From contig JASJCT010000034.1 of NCBI GenBank assembly GCA_030065855.1, forward strand, positions 852 through 64,851: 64,000 nt of DNA, written 5' to 3'. Shown here piece after piece: positions 11,967-46,034 of this stretch. The position numbers and the translations under genes were made by a program. This DNA comes from Myxococcota bacterium (GTDB lineage: Bacteria; Myxococcota_A; Polyangia; JAAYKL01). The notes beneath the pieces were generated by a model that was not told the DNA's origin, did not search any database, and was given only the letters and a program-made list of their open reading frames with translations. Position 1 is the first letter of the stretch. Each line of letters opens with the position of its first letter.

Positions 11967-12458
11967 ATGTGGAATATCGAGACACAAGCGTATCAAGTTT
12001 ATGTAACCAACATTCCTCCTGCAAAGATGAGCGTGATGGATATTGCCAATGCGTATTGTCTTCGCTGGGAAATAGAAATTATATTTCGTCAGCTCAAGTC
12101 GCAGTTTCGACTCAGTGATTTTCCAACGCGAAAGGCAGTTGCCGTAGAGGCGCTAATATACGCTTCACTGATCACTCTAGTGGTTAGCAGAACATTTCTG
12201 GTTGAGCTGCGAAGACGATTTCCTAACCTAAAAGAGCGGATGCCGTTCGAGCGTTGGTCTGCAATATTCGCAGAATTTGCCGTATCGATCCTGCATTCTC
12301 TTTTGGAGAATCGCCGAAGAAAACAGCGACGAAAGAGCAACCTTTTAGAACTCATGTTTAAAGAAGCGATAGACCCAAATGCAGCACGCTCTGGCGGTTT
12401 AATAGGTAGAGTGGAAAATTGTATATCAATGAAAAGTTATGTATTTTCAAATGCTTAA
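11967..12458 (+). pseudogene. IS4-family transposase remnant (C-terminal ~160 aa)
   Basis: YCLRWEIEIIFRQLK gives the Y-2-R-3-E-6-K signature of IS4-family DDE transposases. The N-terminal catalytic part is absent. It lies head to head with the IS701 remnant. Confidence 0.7.
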
Positions 12459-13621: not shown

Positions 13622-15649
13622 TTATTGTTGCAAAAGCCTGCTGTGGGCCCCGTTCAAAAGGGCGTTTATGGCCAGGTCCAACACCTGGGGCAAGCTGGTC
13701 TTTTTCGTCAGGCGGCGCATCTTCTTGAGGTTTCTTTTGGCGATCCGATTTGCGATCCTCTGGCACCAGTCCTTAAAAAAGCCAATATCTTCGACCAGTC
13801 CTGCCTCATAGTCGTCACTGATGGCCAGGGCTGCCTGGATAAATGAACCATAGAGCGGGTCTAAGAGAAGCCCCTCGAGCTCGGTTGCCAGGTGCATTGC
13901 TCCAACTCTCTTGTGACAATCAGCTGCAGAGATAACGTTAAACAGGGCAATGCCTCGTTCTTCCAACCGATGAAACACACTGCGGCCCGGCGCAATGCCG
14001 TTCTGTTTGTAAACCGCTTTTTTGACCCCTTCGTAGACCGCCTGGGCGATCAGCTCCCCCATCTTCGAATGGCCGCCGGTGTTGTCTATGGGATATCCGC
14101 TACCTGACACGGCGATAACATTGTCTGTTCCCGTGCCAGTGGCTGGATTGAATCGACCGGAATAGGCGCTTCTTACGTCCAGATCAAAGAGCGCAGCAGT
14201 CTTTGCCTCGGTAGCAGTGAGGATCGCCCGGGTCCTGGCCCGATGGCTGAGCTCAGCGTTGGTAAGCATGATGATATTAATCGTGCCGGGCTCGTAATAG
14301 TCGCCAATGTCCTTTGACGCCATCATCGCATTGCCCCTCACACCAGCGGTCACCAGTGCATAGGCCTGCAACTTTTCGTATGCTTTGCTGACAACAGACA
14401 GACTGCTCATGTCCGCACCCGTATATAGGAAGCTAAAGTGCTTTCGGTGCTTTGCTATAGCGCTGCCAATTCGCTGCTTTAGCCCTTTGAGGCCAGAGTC
14501 GTGCATAGCTCCCCAGGACTGGGGTGGAAAGTAGTGGTTGCCCACAGCGCTTACTCCTTTTCTGGCCCCTTCGAGGGTCGAGGCGATCCGCTGGGGGGTC
14601 TTGAATTCGACTATCAAAGACTTGTGGGTAAAGTCGTCGATGCGGCTGTGATACACACTCGCCTTTTTGACATAATCCAGGTCGAGTTCGAGGGGTTCTG
14701 ATCTGAAGATGCCTTCTTTGTACACCCGGCTTTTGGGATCTGATGATGCCTTGGGATAAACGGTTGCATACAGCCACGACACCAGATGGGAAACACGGCT
14801 CGAAGCCCTGCAGGTCAGCTCGCAGGGGAAATAATAAACCCTGCTATTTTTTACCGCATCCACATCGCGCCAGCCCGGCTTCTTTGCAATGGTCGCGGCG
14901 ATCTGCTCGTCCCCTTGGCACCCGTAAATCACCTGCGGGTTAAACCCACGCCACTCCTCTAGGGTGACAGGAACGACATGTCCCTGTTTTCCGAGCTTCG
15001 GAGGTGTCCCGCCGGCAAGGGAGATAATCTCGTTTTGAAACGAGTCGTCACCAGGGGTCATGACCTGTTGCCTGCCCATCAGCCTCAGCACTCTCTTTCT
15101 CTCGTCCGGTCTGATTTTCTTGACTTTTTTTTCTATGAGCCCGATTTCCGCTTTGTTCTTCTCAACCAACGTCCGGGCTGCGTCCGCTCGGTCGAATATC
15201 CTGCCCAGCTGCTCGATGGTCCAAAACGCTTCGCTCAATGTGCGTTGATTAAGGTTGACGATCTGACAGGTCTTGCCGCGCTTGGCATTGTTGCCGAATG
15301 CCCGGCCCACCTCATCGTGGAAACCCGCAACGAAAATCAGATCGGGGTTTAATTTTCTAATGACCCTTACATTGGGGGCAAAAAATCCGCCGACGACCTT
15401 TTTGCGCACCACTGGCGAGGGAAAAGTATTGTGGTAGGTCACGCCCACCACGGATGGACCGGCGCCCAGGGCGTAAATCGTCTCGGTCACAGCAGGTACC
15501 AGGGAAACGACCCGCCTGGGCTTTTGGGTCAGCAGAACGGTTTCCCCTCGACTGTCAACGATCTTAATCGGGTAGGAAACCGCGCCCTTGGAAATCAGAA
15601 GGGTACAGACCAGGCCTACGAACATAGCCACAAAATGCTTTTTCATCAT
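13622..15649 (-). CDS. fusion protein: secreted BtuF/FecB-type (class III) periplasmic binding domain + CbiZ-like adenosylcobinamide amidohydrolase domain
   Basis: Signal-like MMKKHFVAMFVGLVCTLLIS. The first ~320 aa resemble Peripla_BP_2 (RVVSLVPAVTETIYALGAG..VVGVT...NPDLIFV...). The C-terminal ~350 aa carry motifs I associate with CbiZ (TAGVRGNA, GTINIIM, ATGTGTDNV). Start moved to ATG 15649. Confidence 0.65.
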   Translation of the reverse strand: MMKKHFVAMFVGLVCTLLISKGAVSYPIKIVDSRGETVLLTQKPRRVVSLVPAVTETIYALGAGPSVVGVTYHNTFPSPVVRKKVVGGFFAPNVRVIRKLNPDLIFVAGFHDEVGRAFGNNAKRGKTCQIVNLNQRTLSEAFWTIEQLGRIFDRADAARTLVEKNKAEIGLIEKKVKKIRPDERKRVLRLMGRQQVMTPGDDSFQNEIISLAGGTPPKLGKQGHVVPVTLEEWRGFNPQVIYGCQGDEQIAATIAKKPGWRDVDAVKNSRVYYFPCELTCRASSRVSHLVSWLYATVYPKASSDPKSRVYKEGIFRSEPLELDLDYVKKASVYHSRIDDFTHKSLIVEFKTPQRIASTLEGARKGVSAVGNHYFPPQSWGAMHDSGLKGLKQRIGSAIAKHRKHFSFLYTGADMSSLSVVSKAYEKLQAYALVTAGVRGNAMMASKDIGDYYEPGTINIIMLTNAELSHRARTRAILTATEAKTAALFDLDVRSAYSGRFNPATGTGTDNVIAVSGSGYPIDNTGGHSKMGELIAQAVYEGVKKAVYKQNGIAPGRSVFHRLEERGIALFNVISAADCHKRVGAMHLATELEGLLLDPLYGSFIQAALAISDDYEAGLVEDIGFFKDWCQRIANRIAKRNLKKMRRLTKKTSLPQVLDLAINALLNGAHSRLLQQ

Positions 15650-15742
15650 CTCGATACATTCCTTCTCAACCCACTGTCGCCACATACCAGAAAACTCAAG
15701 TATCTACGTTTGGGAATTAGCAAATTGGATTGCAACGACTAC

Positions 15743-17707
15743 TCAGTAATATGTGCTCCAGCCCAAATTGATGTGTGGCCATAGCTCCGTGCCAAAATCC
15801 TTTTCGTCTTTGCCGCCTAGGTCGGCAAGCTTGCCCGCAACGTTCCAGGTCCACGATTCACTTAGACCGAGTCGAAGATAAAATCCTATGCGTTCGACTC
15901 GGCGGCGTGGTGGCAAAGATTTTGCTGCTTGTTTATTCCGGTACTTGTATACATAGGCGATGTACACTGCTTGAGACAATCCGATTCCCCACCGAGATCG
16001 TTCGTAGTCTGAAGGATCGACCCGATCTTGCCATGGTTTCTGGAGAATGGTTCCTTCCCATTTTGGACCAATACTCGCCGATAGGCGCAGCACCAAACCT
16101 CCACGCTCAACAGCATGCCAGTCGATCATCAGGGGAAACTCAACTCCCATCCCAGTGGAATTCATCATTTCTGTCTGACCTTCATCCGGGGTTTCTGAGG
16201 GAGCGGCTATTGTTTCATTCACTTGCATAAACTTGATGAGTATGCCCCCGCCCAATTTTATTCGCGACCACCCACCCAAGTAGATGGTTGACATCATTGC
16301 CCCAGGTCCAAACCTTGTTGCAATCTTTCCAACTGGATGCACGTACCCAAGCTCAAGTTCAATAATACCCTTTGTATGGCGAGTACTTTTGTATTTTTCA
16401 AACAGGTCTTCATCATACTTGCGTGAGGATCGCACAATATCCCAATTTTCTCCTGAGTTTTTAGTAATCGCTACTAGCCCCCACGAACCAACAATAATTC
16501 CTTTTGTCTCGTCGATCCGAGAGGCGTTGATTGCCGCCGGAACAGGTTGTGTTTTTTCCTCTATTTCATCGTAAAAATTTAGGAATTGCCAATTCAATCC
16601 ATCGCTCGTTTGTATTGCCGGACCATCCAGTGTTGTCACGACTCCGGATGTGGGTGTCATCATTGCTATGCGGAAGAGGTCTTCTTTAACCTCAGTATCA
16701 ATTTTTTGCCATGTTCTTCCACCATCCACCGATTTCATCAAGAGACCACCTTGGCCACACAGAAATCCCAATGATGGATTTAAAAACTGCACGTCCAATA
16801 GATCCCAGGTGTATTCTAGTTGCATCGAATCAAAGGTTTTTCCTCCGTCTTGGGTGCGCAAAACAGTCCCCCCCCTGCCCACCAACCAAGCATGATTGGC
16901 GTCGAGAAAAAACATCCCGTTGATTTTCGCCGGAAGCTCGACAATACGCCACGTATGCCCTTGGTCCTTTGAATGCAAGAGCCCCCAACCATATAGTATC
17001 CAGGCGTTGTCTCGACCCACATAGGAGACCTCTAAAAATTCGATCTCACTGATTCTACCAGGAGAAACAAACTTGGGTATTTTCGGTAGATATGAAATTA
17101 GTTGACCAAGCTCCTTTTCGAGCACAGCTACGTCTGCTGGCTCTTCATCTGGTATTAGCGTTTGATTGGGAGTGGATTGCCCATCTGGATCTTCTGAGGG
17201 AGAGGACACCGCTGCTGTAGGAGTAGCGTCACTTTCATGCGCCTCTTTTTCTTCTGCTTCTGACCTTATTCTAGCGATCTCCTTGTTTAACAACTCTATT
17301 CTCTCTTCATACCGCTTGATTTGTGGATTTCGTACTCGACTAGAGGGGACCCAGTGCTTTCCACCATCGCTGCTGGTCAGGATCTGACCGTGTGTTCCAA
17401 CCGCAACGCCATGTTGGCGATCGGCAAATGACACCGAACGCAGAATGCGTTCTTCCGGGAGTTTTGAACGATGCTGGAGTTCCCAGGTAACACCGCTGTC
17501 ATTAGTGTGAATAATGATGCCATTTCTTCCTACAGCCCATCCTGTCTGTTCATCGACAAAAGAGGTGTCAAAGAGCGCTTCAAATGTAGGCTCCTCTGCA
17601 TTCTCTTCTTCAAGGTTTCGTTGTTCTGCCACGGCCGCTCTGGTCGCCAATTGCCAAGCCACCATCCCCATACTTAGAAACAATCCGTATCTCGAAATAC
17701 GATACAT
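15743..17707 (-). CDS. secreted BNR/Asp-box beta-propeller protein (Ycf48-like) with C-terminal beta-barrel-like module
   Basis: Signal peptide. About 7 Asp-box motifs (DSGVTW, SDGGKHW, DQGHTW, QDGGKTF, VDGGRTW, SDGLNW, NSGENW). The C-terminal ~200 aa have alternating hydrophobic strands and end in ...INLGWSTYY (aromatic terminus typical of OMPs). Confidence 0.65.
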   Translation of the reverse strand: MYRISRYGLFLSMGMVAWQLATRAAVAEQRNLEEENAEEPTFEALFDTSFVDEQTGWAVGRNGIIIHTNDSGVTWELQHRSKLPEERILRSVSFADRQHGVAVGTHGQILTSSDGGKHWVPSSRVRNPQIKRYEERIELLNKEIARIRSEAEEKEAHESDATPTAAVSSPSEDPDGQSTPNQTLIPDEEPADVAVLEKELGQLISYLPKIPKFVSPGRISEIEFLEVSYVGRDNAWILYGWGLLHSKDQGHTWRIVELPAKINGMFFLDANHAWLVGRGGTVLRTQDGGKTFDSMQLEYTWDLLDVQFLNPSLGFLCGQGGLLMKSVDGGRTWQKIDTEVKEDLFRIAMMTPTSGVVTTLDGPAIQTSDGLNWQFLNFYDEIEEKTQPVPAAINASRIDETKGIIVGSWGLVAITKNSGENWDIVRSSRKYDEDLFEKYKSTRHTKGIIELELGYVHPVGKIATRFGPGAMMSTIYLGGWSRIKLGGGILIKFMQVNETIAAPSETPDEGQTEMMNSTGMGVEFPLMIDWHAVERGGLVLRLSASIGPKWEGTILQKPWQDRVDPSDYERSRWGIGLSQAVYIAYVYKYRNKQAAKSLPPRRRVERIGFYLRLGLSESWTWNVAGKLADLGGKDEKDFGTELWPHINLGWSTYY

Positions 17708-17725: not shown

Positions 17726-19462
17726 TTACTTCGGTGTTACAAACAAGATACCCGTCTTACTCTTATAAAATGCGATCCCCAGAGAAATCGAAGGCCAAAA
17801 TTCAGTCGTTGTTTGTTGGTTACCGCGAAATTCAAAGGTCCAGGCTTGTAACAATTGAAATTTAATCTCAAGCCCCAACTTTACGTAAGTGCTTTCCCCA
17901 CCATATTGTACTGGAACACACAATCCCACAGTTAGTTCTTCAGCTGAGAACACTCCTCCCCTGTGCTCCGTGTCATCTATGGACAGGGATTTTTCTTCAA
18001 AATGGTGCCTGCGATAGTATGGTCCGAGAATCAACCCAACTGATAATATCCAACGCCGATTATGAACAAGAATTCGCCTTAATACGCCCCCTAGGCCGAT
18101 AGTCATACTATCGCCATTGACTTTTTTCTCCAGCAACAAGTCAGTGCTGGGATCGCGGACGGTAATCTCCCCAAATCCATTTGCTCCCCCCATATTGAAC
18201 AGCACTCCCCACTCCCAAGGTGTGTGGCGTAGACTCGTACGGAATACGTCCAGTGACGCTCCTGGAAATGTAACCCAGGGCACGCCAATAGGATGCAAGT
18301 AGCCAAAGAAGATTTCCCAACGACCTGCTGAATTGATTGGACTCAGAACGTGTACTGATTTTTCGATATTGCTCTCTTTTTGACTTTTTTGTACTGACCA
18401 AATACTACCTTTATCTTCAGAGAGCATAACGAGACCTCGCGTGCCCACGATAATGTACTCACCGGAACTGCCGAGCAATGATATAGAGCGCAATCCGCTT
18501 GGCTCTATTTGGGGCAGCGTCACTGGCACCCAATTGCTCAAACCACTCTTTATCAGAAGCTCTGTCTCAGTAATGATCAATCCACGTCCATTTGGTTCGG
18601 CCACTATCTGACGAATATCGCTGTCAGTTGCCAAGGGAATTGTACGCCAGGTAATGCCGCCATCTATTGTCTTCAGAAGAGTACCGCCTTCACCTACAAC
18701 AAATCCATGTTTGCGGTCGATGAAAAAAATGTCGGTAAGCTTGGCCGAACTATCGATCAATTGCGTCTGCCAAGTTCGTCCGCCATCTTGAGTCAGCCAC
18801 AGTGAACTCCATCCAAGTAGTACCCCAAAATTATCATCAAAAAATCTCACCTTGACCAACGCGGCATCATAACCGGCAAAGTAAATGGGAACCCAGGTCT
18901 TTCCAGAATCTGCGCTGAAGAAGAGTGCAGAAGTGCTAACGATCCAAGCACCTATTGGGCTGGTGCAATATACGTGAGTAAAATCTTGCTGGGCAACTTC
19001 TGATTCTGGCCAGTACTTTGGATCTCTAGAATCATCAACTAAATCATTGTGTTGGGTGACAGCAATGCGGGCACTCGGCAGCCAATTTTTGCCGCCGTCT
19101 TCGGTTTTCAGAATAGTTCCAGCAGTACCGACAGCAACGCCAAACTTGGCATTATAGAACGAAATCGACTTCAAAACCTGTGGGTGATGCTGACGATGAT
19201 AGGTTGACTCCCAATGTCCGCCACCATCTTCCGTGCAGTGAATCGCATTCTGACCGACAATTGCACAACCGGCCAGCTCGCTGAAAAAATCGACAGCCAT
19301 AAAGTTAGGAGAAATGTCAGTTTTGGAGCCAATCACGGCATATGAGTCAGCTGGTCTTCCAATTAGGATGAATCCGATCATTGCCCCAAGCAACCATCGC
19401 CGGACTGCAAAATCAGTTACCCTTTGTTTTGCTATCCTTTGTTCTGCTATCATGTAACTCAA
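17726..19462 (-). CDS. secreted BNR/Asp-box beta-propeller protein, paralogue of 15743-17707, with the same C-terminal module
   Basis: Asp boxes EDGGGHW, EDGGKNW, ADSGKTW, QDGGRTW, IDGGITW, EDKGSIW. The C-terminal region shares FGYLHPIG and EFWPSISLG with the neighbour (LGYVHPVG, ELWPHINLG). Confidence 0.65.
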   Translation of the reverse strand: MSYMIAEQRIAKQRVTDFAVRRWLLGAMIGFILIGRPADSYAVIGSKTDISPNFMAVDFFSELAGCAIVGQNAIHCTEDGGGHWESTYHRQHHPQVLKSISFYNAKFGVAVGTAGTILKTEDGGKNWLPSARIAVTQHNDLVDDSRDPKYWPESEVAQQDFTHVYCTSPIGAWIVSTSALFFSADSGKTWVPIYFAGYDAALVKVRFFDDNFGVLLGWSSLWLTQDGGRTWQTQLIDSSAKLTDIFFIDRKHGFVVGEGGTLLKTIDGGITWRTIPLATDSDIRQIVAEPNGRGLIITETELLIKSGLSNWVPVTLPQIEPSGLRSISLLGSSGEYIIVGTRGLVMLSEDKGSIWSVQKSQKESNIEKSVHVLSPINSAGRWEIFFGYLHPIGVPWVTFPGASLDVFRTSLRHTPWEWGVLFNMGGANGFGEITVRDPSTDLLLEKKVNGDSMTIGLGGVLRRILVHNRRWILSVGLILGPYYRRHHFEEKSLSIDDTEHRGGVFSAEELTVGLCVPVQYGGESTYVKLGLEIKFQLLQAWTFEFRGNQQTTTEFWPSISLGIAFYKSKTGILFVTPK

Positions 19463-19750
19463 AGTACCATTTCATTACACTTCTAACAATATAGAATGAG
19501 CTGAGTATCCTGAAAGAGTGCTCTGACTCTGCGAGCTGAACATCTCAGTCCTTTACGGTTCCGTTGGCCCTTCTGTAAGTCACATCATAGAAGAATTCAT
19601 CGCACTTGACCTTGTTGAGGCGTGCGTGCTTTCCCCACTCGCCTGCCTCATCGTTATCGGGAAACAGCGTCTGGTGAACAGGAGGCGTTGCGTTTGCGAT
19701 CGAAATTTATAAAAATAAGATAATTTCCTCTCTCGGACCTGCCGGCGAAC

Positions 19751-19779
19751 TTGACAACGATCATCCCAGTCTCTAAGCT
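19751..19779 (+). promoter_or_regulatory. candidate sigma70-type promoter upstream of the precursor ORF
   Basis: TTGACA (19751-19756), a 17-nt spacer, then TAAGCT (19774-19779), about 110 nt upstream of ATG 19892. This is a pattern match only. Confidence 0.25.
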
Positions 19780-19891
19780 ACGGAGCTATTCAAATAGGGT
19801 TCTATCATTTGTGGGTTCGCGCACTGCTTCCCGCTCGATGTAGATGCCCAAAACGTGCAGTACTTCCGAAAACCAAAGACCAAGGAGGCGT

Positions 19892-20158
19892 ATGATGGAG
19901 CGTAAGATGGACAAGAAAAAGATAGCTCTTCTCAGAAAATCACAGCGATCGTTTGTCTTGAAAGCACTCACGGATCCCAAGTTCAGACGGGCGCTCATCA
20001 AGACGCCTGCACAGGCGCTTGGCAAAAAGCAATTGAGCAAGGTGGAAGCCCAAGAGGTCGAGCTGGTGCTGGCCGCGGTTAAAGGCATCGAGACCCAGAT
20101 CAACACCATGGCCGACAAACTGCTCTGTAACAACGGCGGTACCTGCGGCATCGCCTGA
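19892..20158 (+). CDS. candidate RiPP precursor peptide (88 aa), NHLP-like leader, C-terminal ...LLCNNGGTCGIA
   Basis: AAGGAGG lies 5 nt before ATG 19892 (the ORF-track start 19844 has no SD). The leader segment FVLKALTDPKFRRALIKTPAQALG resembles nitrile-hydratase-like leader peptides. The only two Cys residues are in the last 12 residues. The stop is 3 nt before the first radical SAM gene. Confidence 0.6.
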   Translation: MMERKMDKKKIALLRKSQRSFVLKALTDPKFRRALIKTPAQALGKKQLSKVEAQEVELVLAAVKGIETQINTMADKLLCNNGGTCGIA

Positions 20159-20161
20159 TCC

Positions 20162-21289
20162 GTGCGCGACAATCTGCCGTCACATGGGGGGGACAATTCG
20201 ACCGACGTTACCCTCGCAGAGGTACTGGTGGCCAACACCTGGGAGTGCAACCTCGCCTGCACTTACTGTTTCCTGGCCGACCGAACCCGGGCTGCACCAG
20301 GATCCCCCATGTCGCCCGAGCTGGCAAGACAGGTGATCGACGGGCTCGACCAGGGGCTCGACGAGATAGAGACCATCTGCGTTCACTTCTACGGCGGAGA
20401 ACCGCTGTTGAACCTGGCGGCCATGGAAGCGATGGTCGACCGGGCAGCGCACTTCCCCAGCGAGCGGTTTCAGTTCTCGATTACCACCAACGGCACCGTC
20501 GATACGCCAGCGGCCTTCGCATTGCTCGATGCTGGGAATTTCCAAGTGATCCTGAGCATCGACGGCCCCCGAGAAATTCACGACCACTGCCGACGGACCG
20601 TCACGGGCCGCGGCAGCCACGGCCGCGTGCTGGGGTTTCTAGATCAGCTGCGCTCTCGAACCCGCTGTACCGTGCGCGGCTCTGCTGTCGTTCGCTCGGG
20701 CTGGGGCTTGGCCAACGCCGAGGCATACCTGCGCACCTTGCCGGTACACCACATCAAGGCCCAAGCCGTTCGCGTGCCCCCTGGCGCGCCCTTTGATCTG
20801 ACCGCGCAGGAGCGAGATCGTTATCTCTCCGATCTGGAGGCCATCGGGCGCACGGTCATCGATGATCTCGAGCATGACCGCCTACCAAAGGACGATCGGT
20901 TCTCCAGCCGTGTCCTGCAACTGTTGACCGGCCGGGAGCGGACCACCTATTGCGGGGCCGGGCGCTCCAATTTTGGCATTACCCCGGACGGCACTGTGCT
21001 GCCATGCCTGCTGCTGGACATTGAGGATAATCGCCTGGGGCAGATTGACGAAGCCCCGGCCAGTTGGCGAGCAGCAGGTGCACATTGGACCTCGGTCCGC
21101 AAACCAGGCCGAGAATGCGAGGAATGTCCGGCATTGCCCCTGTGCGGTGGCGGGTGCCCGGCAATCGGCTCGGTATGCGGAGAGAACGAGTGCCAGATGG
21201 TCCGCAAGAACTGCGACGTGGCCCACATGATTTGGGATCACTTTCGCGATTGCCCTGAAACCCTGCTGGGCCTAGCCGGCATCTTTTGA
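20162..21289 (+). CDS. radical SAM / SPASM-domain peptide-modifying enzyme
   Basis: CNLACTYC (CxxxCxxC) near the N-terminus, GGEPLL, and a C-terminal Cys cluster YCGAG...LPC...CEECPALPLCGGGCPA typical of SPASM. The start is GTG 20162. An alternative is GTG 20228, preceded by AGAGG. Confidence 0.85.
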   Translation: MRDNLPSHGGDNSTDVTLAEVLVANTWECNLACTYCFLADRTRAAPGSPMSPELARQVIDGLDQGLDEIETICVHFYGGEPLLNLAAMEAMVDRAAHFPSERFQFSITTNGTVDTPAAFALLDAGNFQVILSIDGPREIHDHCRRTVTGRGSHGRVLGFLDQLRSRTRCTVRGSAVVRSGWGLANAEAYLRTLPVHHIKAQAVRVPPGAPFDLTAQERDRYLSDLEAIGRTVIDDLEHDRLPKDDRFSSRVLQLLTGRERTTYCGAGRSNFGITPDGTVLPCLLLDIEDNRLGQIDEAPASWRAAGAHWTSVRKPGRECEECPALPLCGGGCPAIGSVCGENECQMVRKNCDVAHMIWDHFRDCPETLLGLAGIF

Positions 21290-21295
21290 GGCCCC

Positions 21296-22513
21296 ATGGA
21301 TCTTACCCTATTGAAACAGCACGGCCTGGTTCCCAGCAGTGCCCCACCAGCCGGGTTCGTCGCTGAGGACGTCGCTTCTCGACCAACCCGCGTCCCCCAG
21401 ATGGCCCTGACGTCTCTGGCCCTGGACGTCTCTGGTGGCTGCAACCTTAGGTGTCGGTATTGTGCAGAGCAAGCCAGTCAACCCCAGAGACGCCCGATGG
21501 AGGACGGGTTGATCTCCGAGGCGATTCGTCTCTTAGGTAATAATTGCCCTGAGGGTTCGCGCGGCTCAGTGCGCTTGGGCAGTGGCGAGCCGTTACTCGC
21601 ATTGCCCCAGCTGCGCCGACTAGAAGCCGAGATCGAGGCATGCAAAGCATCGCTGGATGTTTTTCTGACCACCAATGGCATGCTGGTGGATGACACCACT
21701 GCAGACTGGCTAGCGGCCACTGACTGGCGACTCAAGGTCAGCTTAGACGGACCACCGGACATCCACAATGCCTGGCGCGTGGACGCCAGTGGCAAGGCGA
21801 CCTTTGCTCACGTCTCAGCCGCTGTTCAAAGGCTCGTGGATCGCTGTGCAGACAGGGTCAGCGCAACTGCTGTGCTGTGCCGTAGGGCGCAGCCCAAGGT
21901 GGTATTCGACAGTATAGCGGCTTTGGGTGTACGTCGCATCGAGCTCGTCTGCGTGGCGACCAATGACAAAGAGATACTGCTTTCTGCAGAGGACGTGCTG
22001 GCCTACCATGGGTTCGTTCAGCAGTATGCGGACACCCTTATCGGTGCCGATCTAGAGACGCAACCGATGTTGGTCGGTTTCGAGGAGGCTGCGCGCCGGG
22101 CAATGGGTTACGCTAACACAGACCTGCCTTGTGGCGCAGGGCGAACCTTGGCCGGCGTCGATGCTGACGGTGCGCTGTATCCGTGCTTTCGTTTTGTCGG
22201 CCTCGAGGCGTACCGCTTGGGTTATCTTCGGTCTGGACTCGAGCCCCAACTGCAGCATCGATTCTGCAACAGCGTTGGGTGCGCTACAGGGCAACGACAA
22301 CCGTGCCAGGACTGCTGGGCGCAGAGCCTTTGTGGCGGTCCCTGTTTTTCAGTGGCTGCGTTTTTTGGACCTGGCGCCCACGCACCGAGCAGCCTCCACT
22401 GCGCCATTCAGCTAGCCAACGCAAGGGCTGCGGTCAAGTACGTAACCCGTCAGCGAGAGATCGATGCAGCAGCGCTCCTACCACTGCTTCCGATCGAGAT
22501 TCCCCTGCCATGA
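21296..22513 (+). CDS. radical SAM / SPASM-domain peptide-modifying enzyme (second copy)
   Basis: CNLRCRYC, GSGEPLL, and a C-terminal PCGAG...YPC...CQDCWAQSLCGGPCF SPASM-type cluster. 405 aa. Confidence 0.85.
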   Translation: MDLTLLKQHGLVPSSAPPAGFVAEDVASRPTRVPQMALTSLALDVSGGCNLRCRYCAEQASQPQRRPMEDGLISEAIRLLGNNCPEGSRGSVRLGSGEPLLALPQLRRLEAEIEACKASLDVFLTTNGMLVDDTTADWLAATDWRLKVSLDGPPDIHNAWRVDASGKATFAHVSAAVQRLVDRCADRVSATAVLCRRAQPKVVFDSIAALGVRRIELVCVATNDKEILLSAEDVLAYHGFVQQYADTLIGADLETQPMLVGFEEAARRAMGYANTDLPCGAGRTLAGVDADGALYPCFRFVGLEAYRLGYLRSGLEPQLQHRFCNSVGCATGQRQPCQDCWAQSLCGGPCFSVAAFFGPGAHAPSSLHCAIQLANARAAVKYVTRQREIDAAALLPLLPIEIPLP

Positions 22514-23796
22514 GCCTACCGCGCGTCGCACTGGTAAAGCACCCCGAGCAATCCGAGTTCGCCTTTGGTGCCTACAGCCTGGGTGTGTTGGCCGCCTCGA
22601 TTCGAGATGTGGCCCACGTCAGCCTTATCGATGCCACGGATATGAGCATTGACGAGGCGATACGCCAGGTACAACAGGCCGAGCCCGGCCTGATCGGCAC
22701 AACCGTAATGGGTGGCAGCTCCATTCCCCAGGCTTCTGTATTTGTAGAGAGGCTCGTGGCTCAAACCGCTTCGCGACCCGTGCCTATTGTGGTTGGTGGC
22801 CATGGCGCGAGCATGCTCCCCAGAGCATTCCTCGAAGCAGGCGCAGCCGTTGTGGTCGTGGGAGAAGGCGAGACGAGCCTGCGCCAGATCGTTCAAACCG
22901 GCGCTCAGCCCGGTGCTCCGGGTACTGTATGCAAGAACGGCGACTCACTGGTGTGGGGACCGCCCCAACAGTTGATCAAAGACCTCGACGCGCTGCGCCC
23001 ACCAGCGCGGGACTTGATGCCGCCACCCAGGGACGGCATCCACCTGATGGAGACGAGCCGGGGTTGTCCTCATGACTGTTCCTTTTGCGAAACAACCCGG
23101 TTTTTCGGACGGCGCTGGCGCTGCTTTTCAGCAGAGCGGGTGCATGCAGAGGTGGCCCGGCTGGTGGAGGAGCACGGGGCGTGGACGATTCTGATCGCTG
23201 ACGACAATTTTGCGGCCCAGCCGAGCCGCGTCATTGAAATTGGCGAGTGTCTCTCCACTGGGCCCCTGCCCGCGTTGCTAGTGGTCTCTGCCCGTGCCGA
23301 CGACTTGTTGCGAGACCCGAAAGTCATCCCCAGCATGGCAGCGGCACGGATGTTGCGTGTCTGTGTGGGCGTGGAGACACTAGAGCCAGAAGCAGCGGCT
23401 CGGGCTCGCAAGCCGATCGATGCGGCAGTGTACCAGGAGGTGTTTGCCCAACTGCGCGCACACGGCATCTTCAGTGTTGCCTCGTTTATCGTGGGATTGC
23501 CAGGCCAGGTGCTCGACGAGGAAGAAACAGTGGAACAGGTAGTAGCCACAGGCCCTGATTCAGTGGTGTTCAACCCATTTGTACCCATGCCGAACACCCC
23601 ATTGGCTGCATTAGACCAGACCGCCGAGAAGAAACCGGCATTCATGCCCCAAACCCACCACGAGATTTCGGCCAAGCAGATGACAGCGCGTTTCTACCAA
23701 CACCCAAAGACACGTCAAAGGCTCGAACGCACCTCTGGAGAACCAGAAGTCCGGGGCATCCTAGCCCGGGCGGTCTTAAAACAGCACACAACTTAA
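22510..23796 (+). CDS. B12-binding-domain radical SAM enzyme (class B, methyltransferase-like)
   Basis: Start ATG 22510 overlaps the upstream TGA (ATGA). The ORF-track extension from 22183 lies inside the previous gene. The N-terminal ~130 aa form a Rossmann-like B12-binding region (IGTTVMGG...PIVVGGHGAS). The radical SAM motif is SRGCPHDCSFCE. Confidence 0.85.
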   Translation: MSLPRVALVKHPEQSEFAFGAYSLGVLAASIRDVAHVSLIDATDMSIDEAIRQVQQAEPGLIGTTVMGGSSIPQASVFVERLVAQTASRPVPIVVGGHGASMLPRAFLEAGAAVVVVGEGETSLRQIVQTGAQPGAPGTVCKNGDSLVWGPPQQLIKDLDALRPPARDLMPPPRDGIHLMETSRGCPHDCSFCETTRFFGRRWRCFSAERVHAEVARLVEEHGAWTILIADDNFAAQPSRVIEIGECLSTGPLPALLVVSARADDLLRDPKVIPSMAAARMLRVCVGVETLEPEAAARARKPIDAAVYQEVFAQLRAHGIFSVASFIVGLPGQVLDEEETVEQVVATGPDSVVFNPFVPMPNTPLAALDQTAEKKPAFMPQTHHEISAKQMTARFYQHPKTRQRLERTSGEPEVRGILARAVLKQHTT

Positions 23797-23981
23797 GCTT
23801 AGTACTTAAGCCTCCTACCAGCGCCATGACAGGGTTGTAGCCCAAGCTACCCAAGCCCGAATTCACCCACAAATTCTGGTGAGGACGCAAAAAGTAGCTC
23901 AGAGGTTCATATGGGGTCACTAAACATAATTTTTCTGTATGGCGCCCTTCTGCGTATTGCCACCGACCTTTCTTTCCTGGA

Positions 23982-26075
23982 CTACTCCGTTTTCAGCTGT
24001 TTCTTTTGCAGCTCGGTTACCTTCTGTGAGAGCTCCTGAACCGATTTGATCAGCGAGCTAATCAACTCGGTATAACAGATCCCCAGCGTTCCATCGGCAT
24101 CTGAATAGGCTGCGTGTTCCACACCAAGCGCGTCTAATGTATCTTTGAACTCCTGCGCAATCAAGCCGTGATGGACACCGCCGCCTTTCTTCCACCGGAA
24201 CTGCACCGGCTTGAGGGCATTGATGAACTCAAGCCCCAGATTCTCCGGTTCGATTGCAGTTTTTTCGTTTCTATCTGATGTCTGAATAGTGCCGTTTTTC
24301 GCATAAACTCTGTACCATCTTTTGGATGAATACCCCAAATTCTGCTGTCCATCCGCACCAGGCAGCAGACCGCCATTTCGTCCAACCAGCCGCAGTACCT
24401 CGTGATTACCGTCAGATGAAAAGAGGAAATCACCGCCAGAGCTCGAATTCCCGACATCACTCGCAAATTCCATTCCGCCATGGCTCTCTAGCCTCAAACT
24501 TTGGGCAGTTGACATCGTTCTTTCCGCTATTGTCGTCGCTTCTATTGTCGTCGCTTCTATTGTCGTCGCTTCAAGCGTTGTCGCTTCAAGCGTGTGGGTG
24601 TGCCAACTGCTATTACCTACTCTACCCAGTGAATTGACTCGCTGCTCGGGATCTTCAATATGGATGTCGCTATGAATGTATGAACCGATCAGGACGAAGT
24701 TGGACTGTGGAGCGATACCCCCACAGCTCAGCTGCGGAAGCGTCGAACCGTTGCGTTTGGCCTCAAATCTCCCGTTAAGGAAAGTAACCCCCTCAACACC
24801 TTTGCCTTCGATCTTCAACAACTCAAAAATACTTACCCCTGACGGTGTGGTCTCTTGGAATATGCAATTGATAAAAAGGTTCCCATAAGACTTGGCTCTC
24901 CATAGCTCGGGTTGGGAAGAGATTTTCACGCGCTTGTTGTAGAGCCACAGACAGTGCTTTGTGCCTCGATATCGACAGTTGGTCCAGGTATTTTCGTTTG
25001 TCGCGCGATTATTTTCAAACGACACATCATTAGGTAAGTCATCCACATTCCCAACGATTAGCCCTATCCCATCTGCCCCTTCGGGATATCCACAAATGCT
25101 CTTAAACTGATTATTGATCGCCTCTGTTCGCTCATCACTGTACCTGTAGACGCGATGCGCGACTTGAAAGCCTCTGATACGGATATTTTCAAAAATGCCA
25201 TTGTACGTGCAGGTGTCCAGACCGGCGACAAATCCACCGCCGGCGGCGCCTGGAAGAATAATAAAATTCCTGGCGATTTGAGATCGTCCAACAAATGTAA
25301 TCGCTGCCTCGTTGGAGACAGTTCCCTGCTGATTGTTTCTTTCGATTATGAAACCCGCTGATTTTCGGTTAGTAGTATAAATGTAGGTATCTGCTGCCTC
25401 GGGTCCGGTGAGGCAGAGCTTTTGCTTTTCAAAACATATCGTACTTGTCGGCCTTAAAAATATGGGGGAACTAGGGAGTTTGACGGTGATAGTGGGTTCC
25501 TCGGGATCATCAGGTTCATCTAAATCGATGAGGGCATTGACAAAGTCAACGACTCGCTGAAACGCTTGGGTGTCGTCTTCGAAGCCGTCGGCTGTCACAC
25601 CAAACCACTTCACGTGAATTGTGCCCTGCTGATAAATTCGCTTCCATCGGCCCTGGCCTATGTTTGAATTGATGACCGTCCCTCCATCGTCGGCTGCTTG
25701 GTCTCCTTCAATCCACTGAAAAAAACCTCCGCCACCGTCGTTTTCATTGTAGTAGCCCGCAACGTACACTATTTGACCATCGGCCATACCCGCATAGTTT
25801 TTGAGTTCACTATCAATGTTCGAGAGCACTGTGCAGCCATGAGCCCTGTGATGTAATCGGGTATCGTCCTCGCTTAAGTCAATACCTTTGACGGCGAGCG
25901 GCAGCCCTTCCTCACATTGTTGATTCCCAGCTGCGAGCAATCCAGCTGCACCAAAGCCAGCATAAGTCAGGAACTGCCGTCGACTGTTTTCTCGTTTTTC
26001 ATCGACGGTGGATTCAGTTTGTTCTTCTGCCGAACCACAATCACTATTGATTGAAGTCAAAAATCGCTTAACCAT
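23982..26075 (-). CDS. Tat-signal secreted tailspike-like protein: pectate-lyase-type beta-helix + C-terminal peptidase S74 intramolecular chaperone domain
   Basis: SRRQFLTYAGFGAAGLLAAG (twin-arginine). IHVKWFGVTADGFEDDTQAFQRVVDF (Pectate_lyase_3-like start of the beta-helix). The C-terminus SDRNEKTAIEP..LGLEFINALKPVQFRWKK...HHGLIAQEF...YTELISSLIKSVQEL is typical of endosialidase/tail-fibre S74 chaperone domains. Start at ATG 26075 (GGAGG upstream). Confidence 0.75.
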   Translation of the reverse strand: MVKRFLTSINSDCGSAEEQTESTVDEKRENSRRQFLTYAGFGAAGLLAAGNQQCEEGLPLAVKGIDLSEDDTRLHHRAHGCTVLSNIDSELKNYAGMADGQIVYVAGYYNENDGGGGFFQWIEGDQAADDGGTVINSNIGQGRWKRIYQQGTIHVKWFGVTADGFEDDTQAFQRVVDFVNALIDLDEPDDPEEPTITVKLPSSPIFLRPTSTICFEKQKLCLTGPEAADTYIYTTNRKSAGFIIERNNQQGTVSNEAAITFVGRSQIARNFIILPGAAGGGFVAGLDTCTYNGIFENIRIRGFQVAHRVYRYSDERTEAINNQFKSICGYPEGADGIGLIVGNVDDLPNDVSFENNRATNENTWTNCRYRGTKHCLWLYNKRVKISSQPELWRAKSYGNLFINCIFQETTPSGVSIFELLKIEGKGVEGVTFLNGRFEAKRNGSTLPQLSCGGIAPQSNFVLIGSYIHSDIHIEDPEQRVNSLGRVGNSSWHTHTLEATTLEATTIEATTIEATTIAERTMSTAQSLRLESHGGMEFASDVGNSSSGGDFLFSSDGNHEVLRLVGRNGGLLPGADGQQNLGYSSKRWYRVYAKNGTIQTSDRNEKTAIEPENLGLEFINALKPVQFRWKKGGGVHHGLIAQEFKDTLDALGVEHAAYSDADGTLGICYTELISSLIKSVQELSQKVTELQKKQLKTE
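24526..24592. repeat. 15-bp in-frame tandem repeat (4-5 copies) encoding EATT(I/L) pentapeptides
   Basis: tctattgtcgtcgct x3 then tcaagcgttgtcgct x2. The protein shows LEATTLEATTIEATTIEATTIA. Confidence 0.85.
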
Positions 26076-26150
26076 AAAAACCTCCATTTGGATTTCATTC
26101 AAACTATAGAAATAGAACCATTCATGATACCAACTGTCAAGAGATTAAAC

Positions 26151-26776
26151 CTAGCACTACCTGATTAGGCCGAACGCTTGATTAGCGCGGCAGTATGATG
26201 ATCTGCAGAATGTATGTCGACGTTTGCATCATTATGGGACAGTCTTGACGAATTTCTGACCAGCCACCTCGAAGGACTGGAAAACGAGCAGCGAGTAAAA
26301 GCGCTTGCTTGGTATTGTCAAGGATTGGGATTCGAGGTTGAAGCAAAAACCGCGCTTGGGCTAACCTCTGTTATGGCTCTAGGCTCGGTACAAGAGACGC
26401 GTCAGCGTATGCAGCGAGCACTGCAGCGCGGAAGGTTCTCTCACGATACGATCTTTTTGCTGCTTCAGGAGACAGTCTTCGAATCAGGGCAGATACAAGC
26501 TTACTGCATTGATGACACCGGCATCGCGAAAAAGCACGTAAGTTCAAAAAGATTGTTTGGCGAGTGGGCACCAAAGGTCCTCTCGAAGCTGCGTTTGCTG
26601 CATTGAGCGTGCGTAGCGCCGAGCGGTGAACCAAGAAATCTCTGCCTAGCGAAGAATAATTGAATGATTATCGAAGAGCTGTCGCACAGGTCCTCATTCG
26701 ATGGGTTGGCCACTATCCACCTTGCCAACGACCCTTCGAACGGTTTCCAGGAAGGTGGCTAATCAGGTAGTGCTAG
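26151..26776 (+). mobile_element. internally deleted IS701-like element with perfect 18-bp terminal inverted repeats
   Basis: ctagcactacctgattag at 26151-26168 is the exact reverse complement of ctaatcaggtagtgctag at 26759-26776. Only 626 bp lie between the ends, containing a truncated transposase N-terminus. Confidence 0.8.
26214..26606 (+). pseudogene. IS701-family transposase N-terminal fragment
   Basis: ...RVKALAWYCQGL...QRMQRALQRGRFSHD...AYCIDDTGIAKK matches the N-terminal region through the first catalytic-Asp region of IS701-type transposases. The sequence degenerates after DDTGIAKK and stops. Confidence 0.7.
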
Positions 26777-27916: not shown

Positions 27917-29851
27917 TTATCGGGTTCTTGCCTGTGGATGTGTACCGTCGAAATACGGTGTTTTCGGGGCGGGCGGCGGACTTCCCTTGCCTTCCTCCTC
28001 TCCCAGGGCCACCGCGCGCAGGGTGGTCCAGAATAGCTCCCCGGTCAATTGCAGCACCACGGGTTCGACTTTGTCCGGTGTATCCTGAGGCGTGTGGTAA
28101 ATACCGCTATGATCGCTCCAGTACTGGGTCTGCCCGTAGCAGTAGGAAATCCCGGCATTGTTGAACGCCGCGTGATCAGAGCCATTGTGCTCGCCGGAGG
28201 GGGCAATATCCCAGCTAAAGCCCTCGGCCTGAGCTTGGGCGATCATGGTATCGGTCAGCCAGCGATTGTCGCTTTCGTTTCCACCGGTAAGCTGCATACC
28301 CGTGCCAGATCCCGCGCCGACCATGTCCAGATTGAAATAGGCTTTGGTCTTTTCCAGGGGAAACGAAGGACTTGAATTGACATAGTGTTTCGATCCCAAA
28401 AGGCCCATCTCCTCCGCGTTCCAGGTGGCGAACACGGTGGTTCGCTTGGGGACAATATCGCACCATCTGAATTGGCGTGCTGACTCCAGTACCGTTGACA
28501 CTCCCGACGCGTTATCGTCGGCACCGGGGTACAGATTGCCTTGTTCGTCGATACCGAGGTGATCCATGTGCGCACCGATGATCGTCACCTCTGGATCTGG
28601 ATCTGTGCCGGTGATGGCGCCCACCACGTTGGCGGTTTCCACCATGGTCTCGTTGACCGTGACCGTCATCTTTGCATCGATGGCTAATTGGCGGCTATTG
28701 GGCGACAGGGTGGCGTCGATGCTTGCACTCCAGCCGTTCAGTGCCGGAATCGCACGGACCAACTTTTCGCGTGAGACATAGAACACCGGGAAGCTGCTGT
28801 CGTGATACGCTTCGTCGATGAAATAACGACGGTGATCGAAGTCCCTGCGATCCCGGAAATTCGGTACGATGATCATGCCGGCGGCCCCATGCTTCTTGGC
28901 GCTGGCGGCCTTGTAGCCAAAATCCCAAAGGCAGTGGGATCCTTCGCAAAGGGTGGGATCGACCGGGCAATGATTAAAAGTGTCGTTGTCATCGTTGGGT
29001 CCATAGCGCAGAGCGACGACGATTTTCCCGGTCAAATCCCCGAGTTTTTCATAGTCATTATAGCCTTTTGAGCTCAGCGGGCATTTCGGATACGCGCTGC
29101 GATCGTACGCCGGGACCACCATGCCATAGCCGGCAAAGACGACTTGGCCTGTGACGGAACCACTACCCGAGCGGTACAGAACCTTGAAATTATCTCTATG
29201 AGCAAATGTCTCTTTGCCGATGGAGAGGGAAGGTTGGCCCACGACTTTGAATACCTTGGTATTGAACACCTGTCGGTAGGTGCCGTTGTCTCCGGCTGGC
29301 TCCAGATTGTAGGCCGCCATGACCCCTTCGATATACTGCAATGCCAGCTCGTTGCCCTCTGTTCCCGGCTCACGTCCGGCAAACTCCTCGCTGGCCAAAT
29401 GGGCCACCTCGTCCCACATCCGATCGCCATCGACGACACCACATTCCCCTTCTTCTTCGGTATCTGTGTCTGATTCTGAGCCTGTATCGGTATCGGTATC
29501 CGCATCGGTGTCCGCGTCGGTGTCGGTATCGGTGTCCGCGTCGGTGTCGGTATCGGTATCCGCATCAGAGTCGGTATCGGTATCCGCATCAGAGTCGGTA
29601 TCGGTGTCCGCATCAGAGTCTGCATCCGAATCGGTATCCGTGTCCCCGTCAGCATCGCTATCTGCGTCACTGTCAGCGTCACTGTCGGCATCTGAGTCGG
29701 AATCCGTATCTGCGTCGCTATCCGAGTCACTGTCGGCATCACTGTCCGCATCCGAACCACTGTCATCCGGATCTGATGAGCAGTTAATAGTGTTAACACT
29801 GAAAAATACTAGAATTAGCACCATAAAGGCACAACGCATCGACTTCACCAT
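27917..29851 (-). CDS. secreted M28-family aminopeptidase with PA domain and N-terminal Asp-rich repeat region
   Basis: Signal peptide. About 100 aa of [11 protein letters not shown] repeats. M28 metal ligands read as [31 protein letters not shown]. Confidence 0.85.
29462..29776. repeat. in-frame Asp-Ser/Thr-Asp-Ala hexanucleotide/dodecanucleotide repeats (coding)
   Basis: Reiterated gtcggtatc / gtcagagtc type units encode (D-S/T-D-A)n on the minus strand. This also creates long spurious plus-strand ORFs. Confidence 0.85.
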
Positions 29852-30283
29852 TGTTTACTCCTTGCTTCCCGTTGGGATAGCTTCGAAAGGACCGGTCAAA
29901 ATGGCCATTTTTTGCTTTACAACTCCAAAAGGGCAGGCACGAGGGCCTGTCCCTACGTCAAGTTCGACATCGTATGTAGGGGCGGCCCCCTGAGGGTGTC
30001 CTTGGGCCTCGATAAAATTGTAAAGATGATTGACCGGACCCGTTTCAAATGAGTTATCTGAATAAAATTGTTGAATATTATTAACTCCTTGTAGAGTGCT
30101 AGGGGTTCCTTATGCCAATGTGAATATATCATGCCTTAAAATGAATAGGAATAAGAACGACATCTTTAGAGCGCATGCGGCATGAATCGTGGCGTATTTG
30201 ACGAGTCATCCCCTAGAAGGGGGGATCCATGAACGTAAAGCACTGATAGATTATTTTTCTTATATTCCATTTATTAACATATC

Positions 30284-45810: not shown

Positions 45811-46034
45811 CAAATCTCCATTCTCATTCACACTGTCGTATCAGCCGCGATACACGAACCTCTCTATCAATACCAAATACCGGGGTGAGAACAAAGTATT
45901 GGGTGCCAGACCCGTCAAAATCCCCCTGCCCCCTTGGCCAAAGAGGGCGTTTATGACCCATCACTCATCACTTGACGAGGTACGATGTGCTTCTGGCCCC
46001 TTTGCCGATAATTTGATATTATCTCGCTAGACGA

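Follow-up and report, generated by a model that had tools for sequence, protein, structure and literature searches.

A four-gene radical-SAM cassette in a Myxococcota genome with a conserved, cysteine-tailed small peptide as its proposed substrate

The 64,000-nucleotide stretch of Myxococcota DNA analysed here (the window, taken at its full length) carries, at 19892-20158 on the forward strand, a gene for a peptide of 88 amino acids followed by genes for two radical S-adenosylmethionine (radical-SAM) enzymes with SPASM domains, rSAM1 and rSAM2, and for a cobalamin (B12)-binding radical-SAM enzyme, hereafter the B12 enzyme. We favour, with a probability of roughly 55%, the view that the peptide is the ribosomal substrate of this self-contained four-gene maturation cassette, which would make a product of the RiPP type (a ribosomally synthesized peptide that is modified post-translationally) and in which the enzymes have proposed roles in thioether formation and methylation. 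Judged from its sequences, the system is in kind a radical-SAM RiPP system that stands nearest to the chemistry of ranthipeptides and of the QhpC/QhpD pair, combined with a recognition domain that resembles the clan of nitrile-hydratase-like leader peptides (NHLP); it stays below the curated cutoffs of all of these families.

A small peptide gene at the head of an operon

The open reading frame (ORF) translates exactly into the 88 residues quoted in the preliminary description of this DNA and ends at a TGA stop codon (20156-20158). It is a genuine gene and not a chance ORF, because it has homologues at significant E-values and because almost every one of these is embedded in the same arrangement of genes, beside the same enzymes. 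Two adjacent ATG codons (19892 and 19895) could serve as start, and a public gene call takes the second, which gives 87 residues. The peptide gene is the head of a translationally coupled four-gene operon: it has its own ribosome-binding site, 3 nucleotides separate it from the rSAM1 gene and 6 nucleotides separate rSAM1 from rSAM2, and the rSAM2 and B12 enzyme genes overlap in an ATGA (Table 1). The window holds no second member of the peptide family.

A conserved helical domain that ends at Cys79

An AlphaFold2 model of the peptide, built from a shallow alignment of seven sequences, consists of helices at residues 8-27, 29-37, 39-42, and 50-80, with block means of the predicted local distance difference test (pLDDT) of 85-93 for residues 11-80 and of 59 for the tail (residues 81-88). 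The conserved alignment columns are spread over this helical region, with A25, L26, T27, D28, P29, F31, R32, L35, P39, A42, and L43 in its first half and E55, L60, V63, I66, Q69, I70, A74, D75, L77, L78, and C79 in its second half, and can be summarized by the motifs ALTDPKFR, L..P..AL, E..L.LAAVKGI..QI, and (A)D(E/K)LL. The domain closes with a near-invariant (A)-D-E-L-L-Cys, whose cysteine, Cys79, lies where the last helix ends. Cys79 forms the one column that never varies in an alignment of 67 sequences, and about 106 of the 114 unique sequences of the family have it. Of 101 aligned sequences, 86 carry Asp and 5 carry Glu four positions before Cys79.

Beyond Cys79 the tail varies in both length and sequence. 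Most members have a tail of the form C-A-N-Gly(2-6)-(P)-C-G-I-A, with two cysteines and a glycine spacer, and the window peptide, whose CNNGGTCGIA contains its only cysteines past residue 78 (Cys79 and Cys85), belongs to this type. Other members end in a C-x-C tail, C-A-C-(S/G/A)-V... (for example CACGVIV or CACSVTATPTVRNKA), or in a tail with a single cysteine (for example CIIQDDDDKPVLA, CIEPPGGGPIYA, or CANGPAEEVR). A second cysteine is present in 74 of the 101 aligned sequences, and 120 of 178 members contain a C-x-(I/V/L)-(A/G/C) motif, with further residues past it in 34 of these 120. A conserved domain with a fixed end followed by a hypervariable tail is, at the level of sequence, the pattern that RiPP precursors show. 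Among the C-terminal positions that the preliminary description had proposed to compare across homologues, Cys79 is thus the invariant one, and both the Gly-Gly and the second cysteine turned out to be variable. Its fallback proposal, cleavage ahead of the cysteines to release a C-x5-C mini-core, comes closest to these data because the boundary between conserved and variable sequence falls at Cys79.

The preliminary description had also recognized a long NHLP-like leader in this peptide, and a likeness does exist at the level of the family, although it is weak, stays below all cutoffs, and is restricted to residues 18-54. On the window peptide, the NHLP-clan model NF038399 scores 26.2 bits (cutoff 40; match within residues 18-54), TIGR03793 scores 16.5 bits (cutoff 50.9; E = 0.0057; residues 18-50), and the nitrile hydratase alpha model PF02979 gives a weak match with E = 0.034. 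Across the 67 aligned members, matches at E < 0.01 were obtained with NF038399 for 64, TIGR03793 for 31 (best E = 4.8e-5), PF14407 for 28, TIGR04509 for 22, PF02979 for 11, and with another nitrile hydratase alpha model, TIGR01323, for 7, all of them weak. The 'Os1348' for which the best-matching hidden Markov model (HMM) is named is an unrelated small protein of Pseudomonas. A Foldseek search of the PDB with the peptide model gave generic helical hairpins only (best E 1.8) and no nitrile-hydratase-like fold, so that an ancestry in nitrile hydratase alpha subunits has no support at the level of the fold. Because the scores lie below the cutoffs, the match covers only residues 18-54, and no nitrile-hydratase-like fold was found, we regard the helical domain as remotely NHLP-clan-like over its first ~35 residues and not as a member of the NHLP family.

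A widespread family with a conserved gene order

A search with the single sequence found five homologues with 55-64% identity (E 2e-14 to 2e-20), a profile search retrieved 88 clusters at E < 1e-3 from 1.84 billion representative proteins (49 of the clusters at E < 1e-10), and a second profile search retrieved 266 clusters at 90% identity. The source name of every homologue is 'hypothetical protein', including that of WP_006367222.1 from the cultured Chlorobium ferrooxidans DSM 13031, and neither Pfam nor NCBIfam has a model whose cutoff is reached by the window peptide. Nothing relevant turned up in the literature for the tail motifs (GGPCGIA, PCGIA, LLCANGG), the Chlorobium accessions, or combinations of ranthipeptide, B12, and NHLP. 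The cassette is known to neither Pfam, NCBIfam nor, as far as our searches went, the literature, and is a previously unnamed, widespread one.

We collected about 60 related loci from genomes and metagenomes, about 30 of which are long enough for gene order to be judged. The order peptide-rSAM1-rSAM2-B12 enzyme is found in essentially all of these ~30 loci, with enzymes that are 35-62% identical to those of the window. Homologous peptides therefore adjoin related enzyme pairs, which removes the objection that such homologues might be missing there and upholds the earlier proposal of a precursor-type substrate beside a radical-SAM pair. The cassette thus recurs in distantly related anaerobes. 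The named hosts are a Chlorobiales metagenome-assembled genome (MAG), Chlorobium ferrooxidans, Smithella/Smithellaceae, Omnitrophota, Aminicenantes, a Clostridia MAG, a MAG labelled Acetobacteraceae, and a Methanoregula MAG, this last a genome bin that has been placed in the Archaea. When the ORFs flanking the ~30 cassettes were clustered all against all, no other conserved neighbour emerged; in particular, no protease, ABC exporter, C39 peptidase, RiPP recognition element (RRE) protein, or immunity gene is conserved beside them, and in the window no C39/ABC exporter gene adjoins the operon.

Several loci depart from the standard composition. A reduced cassette (L062, 5685-8735) consists of peptide, rSAM1, and B12 enzyme, without rSAM2, and its peptide ends in LLCLNGPCGIC. 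Another one, from Clostridia (L013, 3487-6042), has peptide, rSAM1, and rSAM2 and lacks the B12 enzyme, the place of which is occupied by a 287-amino-acid membrane protein; the tail of its peptide is ILCTSGGSGCCGIAYA. A double cassette from Aminicenantes (L055, 1-4901 of JABAOF010007316.1) reads peptide, rSAM1, rSAM2, B12 enzyme, second rSAM2, second peptide; its two rSAM2 copies are 62% identical to each other and its second peptide has a different tail, with a single cysteine. L014/L015 represent this double cassette as well.

Two other ideas about the cassette were tried and rejected. A 53-amino-acid ORF located upstream of the precursor gene in six loci (L001-L006) was considered as a second precursor, and is limited to those near-identical contigs. 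The cassette is not a known defence system either, because the similarity to viperins reported by PADLOC is merely the generic one among radical-SAM enzymes.

Relatives with export signals or tandem units

At least five members of the family (P0027, P0032, P0038, P0042, and P0191) carry an N-terminal signal for twin-arginine translocation (Tat), with, for example, SRRELFLK, a hydrophobic stretch, and an A-x-A motif. Three of the corresponding genes were located at L057 2862-3287, L058 265-690, and L059 1031-1366, to which P0038 and P0191 are to be added. In the members for which we read the DNA (P0027, P0032, and P0042), a GGAGG precedes the upstream ATG, and in the two Tat loci with downstream sequence, L058 and L059, a rSAM1 homologue follows the peptide gene. 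HMMs for Tat signals match 2 of the 67 aligned members, and P0027, P0042, and P0191 have a Lys/Arg-rich C-terminal extension past C-G-I-A. The window peptide has no Tat signal, and we found no paper that ties Tat export to radical-SAM RiPP precursors.

An even more elaborate relative is P0007, a 769-amino-acid protein encoded on a 5276-base contig of JGI sample 3300075153, which comprises a signal anchor, a CarboxypepD_reg domain, a transmembrane helix, and four complete tandem units of the peptide. Each of these units ends in LLCA(N/H)GGPCG plus two variable residues (IG, IG, IA, and MF), and the gene lies directly upstream of radical-SAM genes. Because some relatives have Tat signals or four fused units, the helical domain is perhaps not a throw-away leader.

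Three radical-SAM enzymes

Both SPASM enzymes keep, throughout the family, the CxxxCxxC motif of the radical-SAM cluster and seven cysteines for auxiliary clusters. In rSAM1 these are Cys29/33/36 and the conserved Cys264, 282, 319, 322, 328, 332, and 339-351, and in rSAM2 Cys49/53/56 and Cys279, 297, 337, 340, 346, 350, and 369. The Pfam Radical_SAM domain is recognized in the two enzymes; the Pfam SPASM domain is above cutoff in rSAM1 only (rSAM2 scores 15.4 bits, with a cutoff of 21.5), and the NCBIfam SPASM model TIGR04085 is above cutoff for rSAM2. Their best NCBIfam match is PapB (rSAM1 1.5e-43, 149.4 bits; rSAM2 1.9e-46, 158.8 bits; cutoff 340). QhpD (TIGR03906; 1.9e-38, 132.4 bits and 1.7e-37, 129.2 bits, respectively; cutoff 453), the SCIFF maturase (TIGR03974; 107 and 103.7 bits; cutoff 425), and the nif11-peptide maturase, the last likewise far below its cutoff, are also among the best curated matches, and the MftC model matches rSAM2 only (6e-14, 51.9 bits; cutoff 265). 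The best solved structure for both enzymes is that of CteB (5wgg). PapB, QhpD, and CteB form thioethers on cysteines. Neither rSAM1 nor rSAM2 has an N-terminal extension of the RRE type, since in both a mere 25-45 residues precede the SAM-cluster motif and the alignment with the QhpD and nif11 models begins at model positions ~75-90.

The B12 enzyme combines a B12-binding domain (PF02310, 2e-13) with a Radical_SAM domain (PF04055, 4e-17) and has a conserved CxxxCxxC motif at Cys192/196/199 (numbered as in the alignment, where the reference ORF begins ahead of the ATG at 22510). Its nearest curated methyltransferases are HpnR, the MCR glutamine C-methyltransferase, KedN5, and PhpK, and BchE, AprD4, and ApyD are other near families; all of these matches are far below the cutoffs. 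AprD4 was the top match in the PDB search and outscored the methyltransferases CysS and TokK. This enzyme is a presumed C-methyltransferase.

Of the three, only rSAM1 is found in every cassette. It is also the most conserved, with a mean pairwise identity of 52.7% (B12 enzyme, 49.1%; rSAM2, 45.6%), and its identity falls by 3 points between cassettes with unlike tail types, the smallest drop of the three, against 6.6 points, the largest, for rSAM2.

Proposed maturation of the peptide

In the maturation scheme that we propose, the helical domain would dock the peptide onto the enzymes, which are devoid of RRE. The enzyme rSAM1 would then abstract a hydrogen, and the sulfur of the invariant Cys79 would probably be joined to a nearby carbon as a thioether. 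Our best guess is that Asp75 or Glu76 serves as acceptor; this conserved acidic residue, four (or three) positions upstream, would lie on the same face of the helix, one turn off. Such a bond would be a Cys-to-Asp/Glu link of the PapB/QhpD type with reversed polarity. The second SPASM enzyme, rSAM2, would introduce another link or modification in the variable tail, and where a P-C-x-I-A segment is present would do so at its cysteine, Cys85; the B12 enzyme may perform a dispensable tailoring reaction, the addition of one or more C-methyl groups. With no linked protease or exporter, the product would be freed by unlinked housekeeping functions or would remain joined to the helical domain. This assignment of rSAM1 to Cys79, of rSAM2 to the tail, and of an optional role to the B12 enzyme is based on the universality of rSAM1, the reduced cassettes, the identity patterns, and the extra rSAM2 gene beside a second precursor. 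From our comparisons, rSAM1 probably modifies Cys79, and a thioether is its most likely product.

Several observations weigh against this scheme. The thioether, its acceptor, and the methylation are all extrapolated from families whose cutoffs the enzymes miss widely (149-159 versus 340 bits in the case of PapB), and the close radical-SAM relatives of the B12 enzyme include BchE and AprD4, its top PDB match, which are not methyltransferases. A model with one link per cysteine and per enzyme is too simple, because members with a single cysteine (L014, L043, and L050) keep all three enzymes. The Asp at position -4 is missing in ~10% of the members and could be a mere recognition residue, and the differences in enzyme identity are confounded by phylogeny. 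A division into leader and core is unproven without a protease or an exporter, and the Tat-signal and tandem-fusion variants suit a retained domain at least as well.

Alternative fates of the peptide

The main competitor of the leader-and-core scheme, tentative and less probable, is that the domain is never removed and that the end product is a protein of ~8-9 kDa whose cysteine tail bears a radical-SAM cross-link or a protein-derived cofactor, located in the cytoplasm or, via Tat, in the periplasm. The lack of a conserved protease or exporter across the ~30 cassettes would suit this reading, as would the confident fold (pLDDT ~90 over residues 11-80) and a conservation that exceeds that of typical leaders. 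The Tat system exports folded proteins that have matured in the cytoplasm, and at least five members have Tat signals, with their own GGAGG ribosome-binding site in the three for which we read the DNA and, in L058 and L059, with rSAM1 homologues behind them; P0007 joins four complete units to a membrane protein encoded upstream of radical-SAM genes. The QhpD model matches both SPASM enzymes at ~1e-38, and the logic would parallel that of the QhpC subunit, which is cross-linked by QhpD. However, a hypervariable tail past Cys79 would be unusual for a cofactor or an active site, the neighbourhood holds no conserved partner protein or enzyme subunit, Foldseek found no structural relative, the window peptide has no Tat signal, and Tat export of a pro-peptide followed by cleavage in the periplasm would be equally possible. 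With still more reserve, we consider it conceivable that the family represents a new kind of radical-SAM-matured small protein, and not a secreted antibiotic, in which the ~60-residue domain is kept and up to three radical-SAM enzymes turn the terminal cysteine and tail into a cross-link or cofactor, in a product that is intracellular, membrane-tethered as four tandem units, or Tat-exported in folded form.

It is improbable that the last residues, C-G-I-A, are cross-linked or decarboxylated and excised as a small redox cofactor in the style of mycofactocin or PQQ, a chemistry that the preliminary description had thought the tail to resemble. The lack of linked exporter or immunity genes would suit such a cofactor, as would the weak match of rSAM2 to MftC and the recurrent C-terminal C-x-I-A (120 of 178 members), which loosely resembles the ...CGVY end of the mycofactocin precursor. 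Yet one and the same enzyme set serves tails from CACGVIV to CIIQDDDDKPVLA, whereas cofactor precursors keep their reacting residues invariant; 34 of the 120 tails run past the motif, the tandem units of P0007 hold C-G-I-G internally, the second cysteine is present in only ~3/4 of the members (the first being near-invariant), and genes for an MftB-like RRE chaperone, for a peptidase such as MftE or PqqF, and for tailoring or dependent oxidoreductases are not conserved. The comparison with mycofactocin and PQQ thus did not hold. Very unlikely, too, is a non-substrate role, with the small protein acting as accessory, scaffold, or regulatory partner of enzymes whose true substrate is encoded elsewhere: its strongly conserved, folded helical domain would fit such a role, and a separate binding partner is conceivable for enzymes without RRE, but an invariant cysteine at the junction with a hypervariable tail, HMM similarity of the RiPP-leader type, the pairing of an extra rSAM2 with a second, differently tailed precursor, and the four tandem units of P0007 all speak for a substrate, and no other candidate substrate is conserved nearby. 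A cleavage in which the C39-peptidase domain of an ABC exporter would cut after Gly82-Gly83 and free the five residues TCGIA as a double-glycine bacteriocin is effectively refuted. NHLP-family leaders typically end in GG, and the window peptide does contain one, but here the GG is part of a run of 2-6 glycines between two cysteines, often followed by Pro, and this glycine run is absent in the CAC-type and single-Cys members; conservation stops at Cys79 and not at the GG. The five-residue TCGIA core that the preliminary description derived from a cut at the Gly-Gly is left without support because the GG is variable and often missing and because no C39/ABC exporter is linked to any cassette or to the window operon.

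Comparison with known systems

Ranthipeptide systems (PapA/PapB of freyrasin and CteA/CteB of thermocellin) share with the cassette a SPASM maturase with two auxiliary clusters, a cysteine-containing peptide encoded immediately upstream, and a conserved acidic residue four positions from a conserved cysteine. They have repeated C-x3-D cores and one maturase, whereas here there is a single D75-x3-C79 of opposite polarity and two paralogous SPASM enzymes, both missing the PapB cutoff, plus a B12 enzyme; N-terminal extension or RRE, protease, and exporter are all lacking, and the recognition domain is long, folded, and NHLP-clan-like. In the QhpC/QhpD system a small protein is likewise the target of a SPASM enzyme, which makes cysteine thioethers in the cytoplasm before export. 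In contrast, the tail is hypervariable here, a B12 enzyme is present, the QhpD cutoff is missed, and neither the qhpA/qhpB subunits nor the QhpE protease or the QhpF exporter are encoded in the window or in related loci. SCIFF (ScfA/ScfB) offers the example of another minimal cassette found across anaerobes, with a conserved small cysteine peptide, a SPASM enzyme, and no protease, exporter, or immunity gene, but with six cysteines in forty-five residues instead of at most two cysteines, and without the three enzymes found here, of which rSAM1 and rSAM2 miss the ScfB cutoff.

The proteusin-type NHLP/Nif11 leaders have in common with the window peptide a long leader-like region with helix-turn-helix structure and the motif A-L-x-D-P-x-F-R-x-x-L-x-x-(D/N)-P-x-x-A-L. 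The likeness ends near residue 54; beyond it, in the second half, the window peptide forms a long helix outside the NHLP and nitrile hydratase alpha models, and a terminal GG/GA cleavage motif and a C39 exporter are missing. NHLP and nitrile hydratase alpha leaders contain an extended, strand-like segment in that place. Mycofactocin (MftA/B/C) resembles the cassette in the short C-terminal tail with Cys-Gly-(Val/Ile), in the SPASM enzyme, and in the absence of an exporter; it differs in that MftB, MftD, and MftE have no counterparts here, the end is ...CGIA in place of Val-Tyr, tails vary and many are extended, and the MftC cutoff is missed. Finally, the B12 enzyme has the N-terminal cobalamin-binding domain and the radical-SAM core with CxxxCxxC of class B B12-dependent radical-SAM methyltransferases.

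Operon features and genomic surroundings

The features of the operon are collected in Table 1. A scan of the whole window with Rfam at gathering thresholds was empty, and no cobalamin riboswitch precedes the operon; a tRNA scan of the whole window found none either. In the region 19400-24100 no sigma-70 promoter was predicted, and terminator-like matches were at background level and inside genes.

Table 1. Coordinates of the peptide gene, its parts, and the three enzyme genes in the window
Feature	Position	Strand	Basis and remarks
Ribosome-binding site AAGGAGG	19883-19889	+	Read directly; upstream of the twin ATG
Precursor/substrate gene (proposed), 88 aa (87 aa from second ATG)	19892-20158	+	Translation, homologue searches
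Conserved helical domain, putative recognition domain, residues 18-78	19943-20125	+	Alignments, AlphaFold2, sub-cutoff HMM matches
Cys79 codon, predicted primary modification site	20126-20128	+	Alignment conservation
Variable tail NNGGTCGIA (Gly spacer and C-x-I-A)	20129-20155	+	Tail surveys; low pLDDT
Cys85 codon	20144-20146	+	Sequence
rSAM1, radical-SAM/SPASM enzyme, 375 aa	20162-21289	+	ORF list, HMM, alignment; GTG start 3 nt past peptide stop
rSAM2, second radical-SAM/SPASM enzyme, 405 aa	21296-22513	+	ORF list, HMM, alignment
B12-binding radical-SAM enzyme, 428 aa	22510-23796	+	ORF list, HMM; ATG overlaps rSAM2 stop (ATGA)

The enzyme genes form an island of high G+C content (0.60-0.65, versus 0.45-0.50 in the flanks; 20000-23700), and the wider region lies between two truncated DDE-transposase ORFs, at 11967-12458 (+) and 26214-26606 (+), which match DDE_Tnp_1 (8.6e-11) and, below cutoff, DDE_5 (1.2e-4), respectively. 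The G+C island together with the flanking transposase fragments suggests that the cassette may have been acquired horizontally.

Two observations concern cobalamin, and both may be coincidences. Four kilobases from the B12-radical-SAM gene there is a cobalamin-salvage gene (13622-15685, -) encoding an apparent fusion of 687 amino acids, with a BtuF/IsdE-like periplasmic binding domain (~40-290) and an adenosylcobinamide-hydrolase domain similar to CbiZ/CbiS (~400-630), and in the related loci L001-L006 the cassette adjoins genes for a corrinoid protein and an MttB-family methyltransferase. Between this salvage gene and the operon, and divergent from the latter, lie tandem paralogues (15743-17707, -, and 17726-19462, -; 654 and 578 amino acids) with BNR/Ycf48-like beta-propeller repeats, each with an unassigned ~200-residue C-terminal region ending in aromatic residues that could be a membrane beta-barrel. 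The gene convergent to the end of the operon (23982-26102, -) codes for a protein of 706 amino acids with a Tat-like SRRQFL N-terminus, a short TLEATT/TIEATT repeat, and a C-terminal Peptidase_S74 domain (endosialidase chaperone), as on phage tail spikes; it is not conserved beside the cassette elsewhere.

Farther away, 27917-29851 (-) encodes an M28 peptidase with a PA domain and an N-terminal low-complexity (D-S/T-D-A) run of ~100 residues, which gives rise to long shadow ORFs on both strands (29074-29993). An 812-amino-acid protein of the sulfatase family (43393-45831, -) has no adjoining anaerobic sulfatase-maturing enzyme (anSME); in the whole window, anSME-like radical-SAM genes occur only in the peptide cassette, at a distance of 20 kb. 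We considered the SPASM enzymes as anSME-like maturases of this sulfatase and rejected the idea because they are in an operon with the peptide and because the linkage conserved among genomes is that of the enzymes with the peptide and not with a sulfatase.

Significance

Radical-SAM maturation of peptides is a main source of new enzyme chemistry, and the cassette described here, of ~4 kb, is compact and portable and is conserved at 40-60% identity in hosts that range from green sulfur bacteria to a methanogen-assigned genome bin. Features that are individually uncommon come together in it, namely two paralogous SPASM enzymes without RRE together with a B12 enzyme, a single invariant cysteine at the end of a folded domain, the absence of protease and exporter, and relatives with Tat signals or four fused units. 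Because one of the hosts, Chlorobium ferrooxidans DSM 13031, is cultured, the question of what the enzymes make of the peptide is directly testable. Once solved, the chemistry of the cassette would probably reveal a new Cys-centred cross-link and would also show how maturases devoid of RRE recognize a helical, NHLP-like domain.

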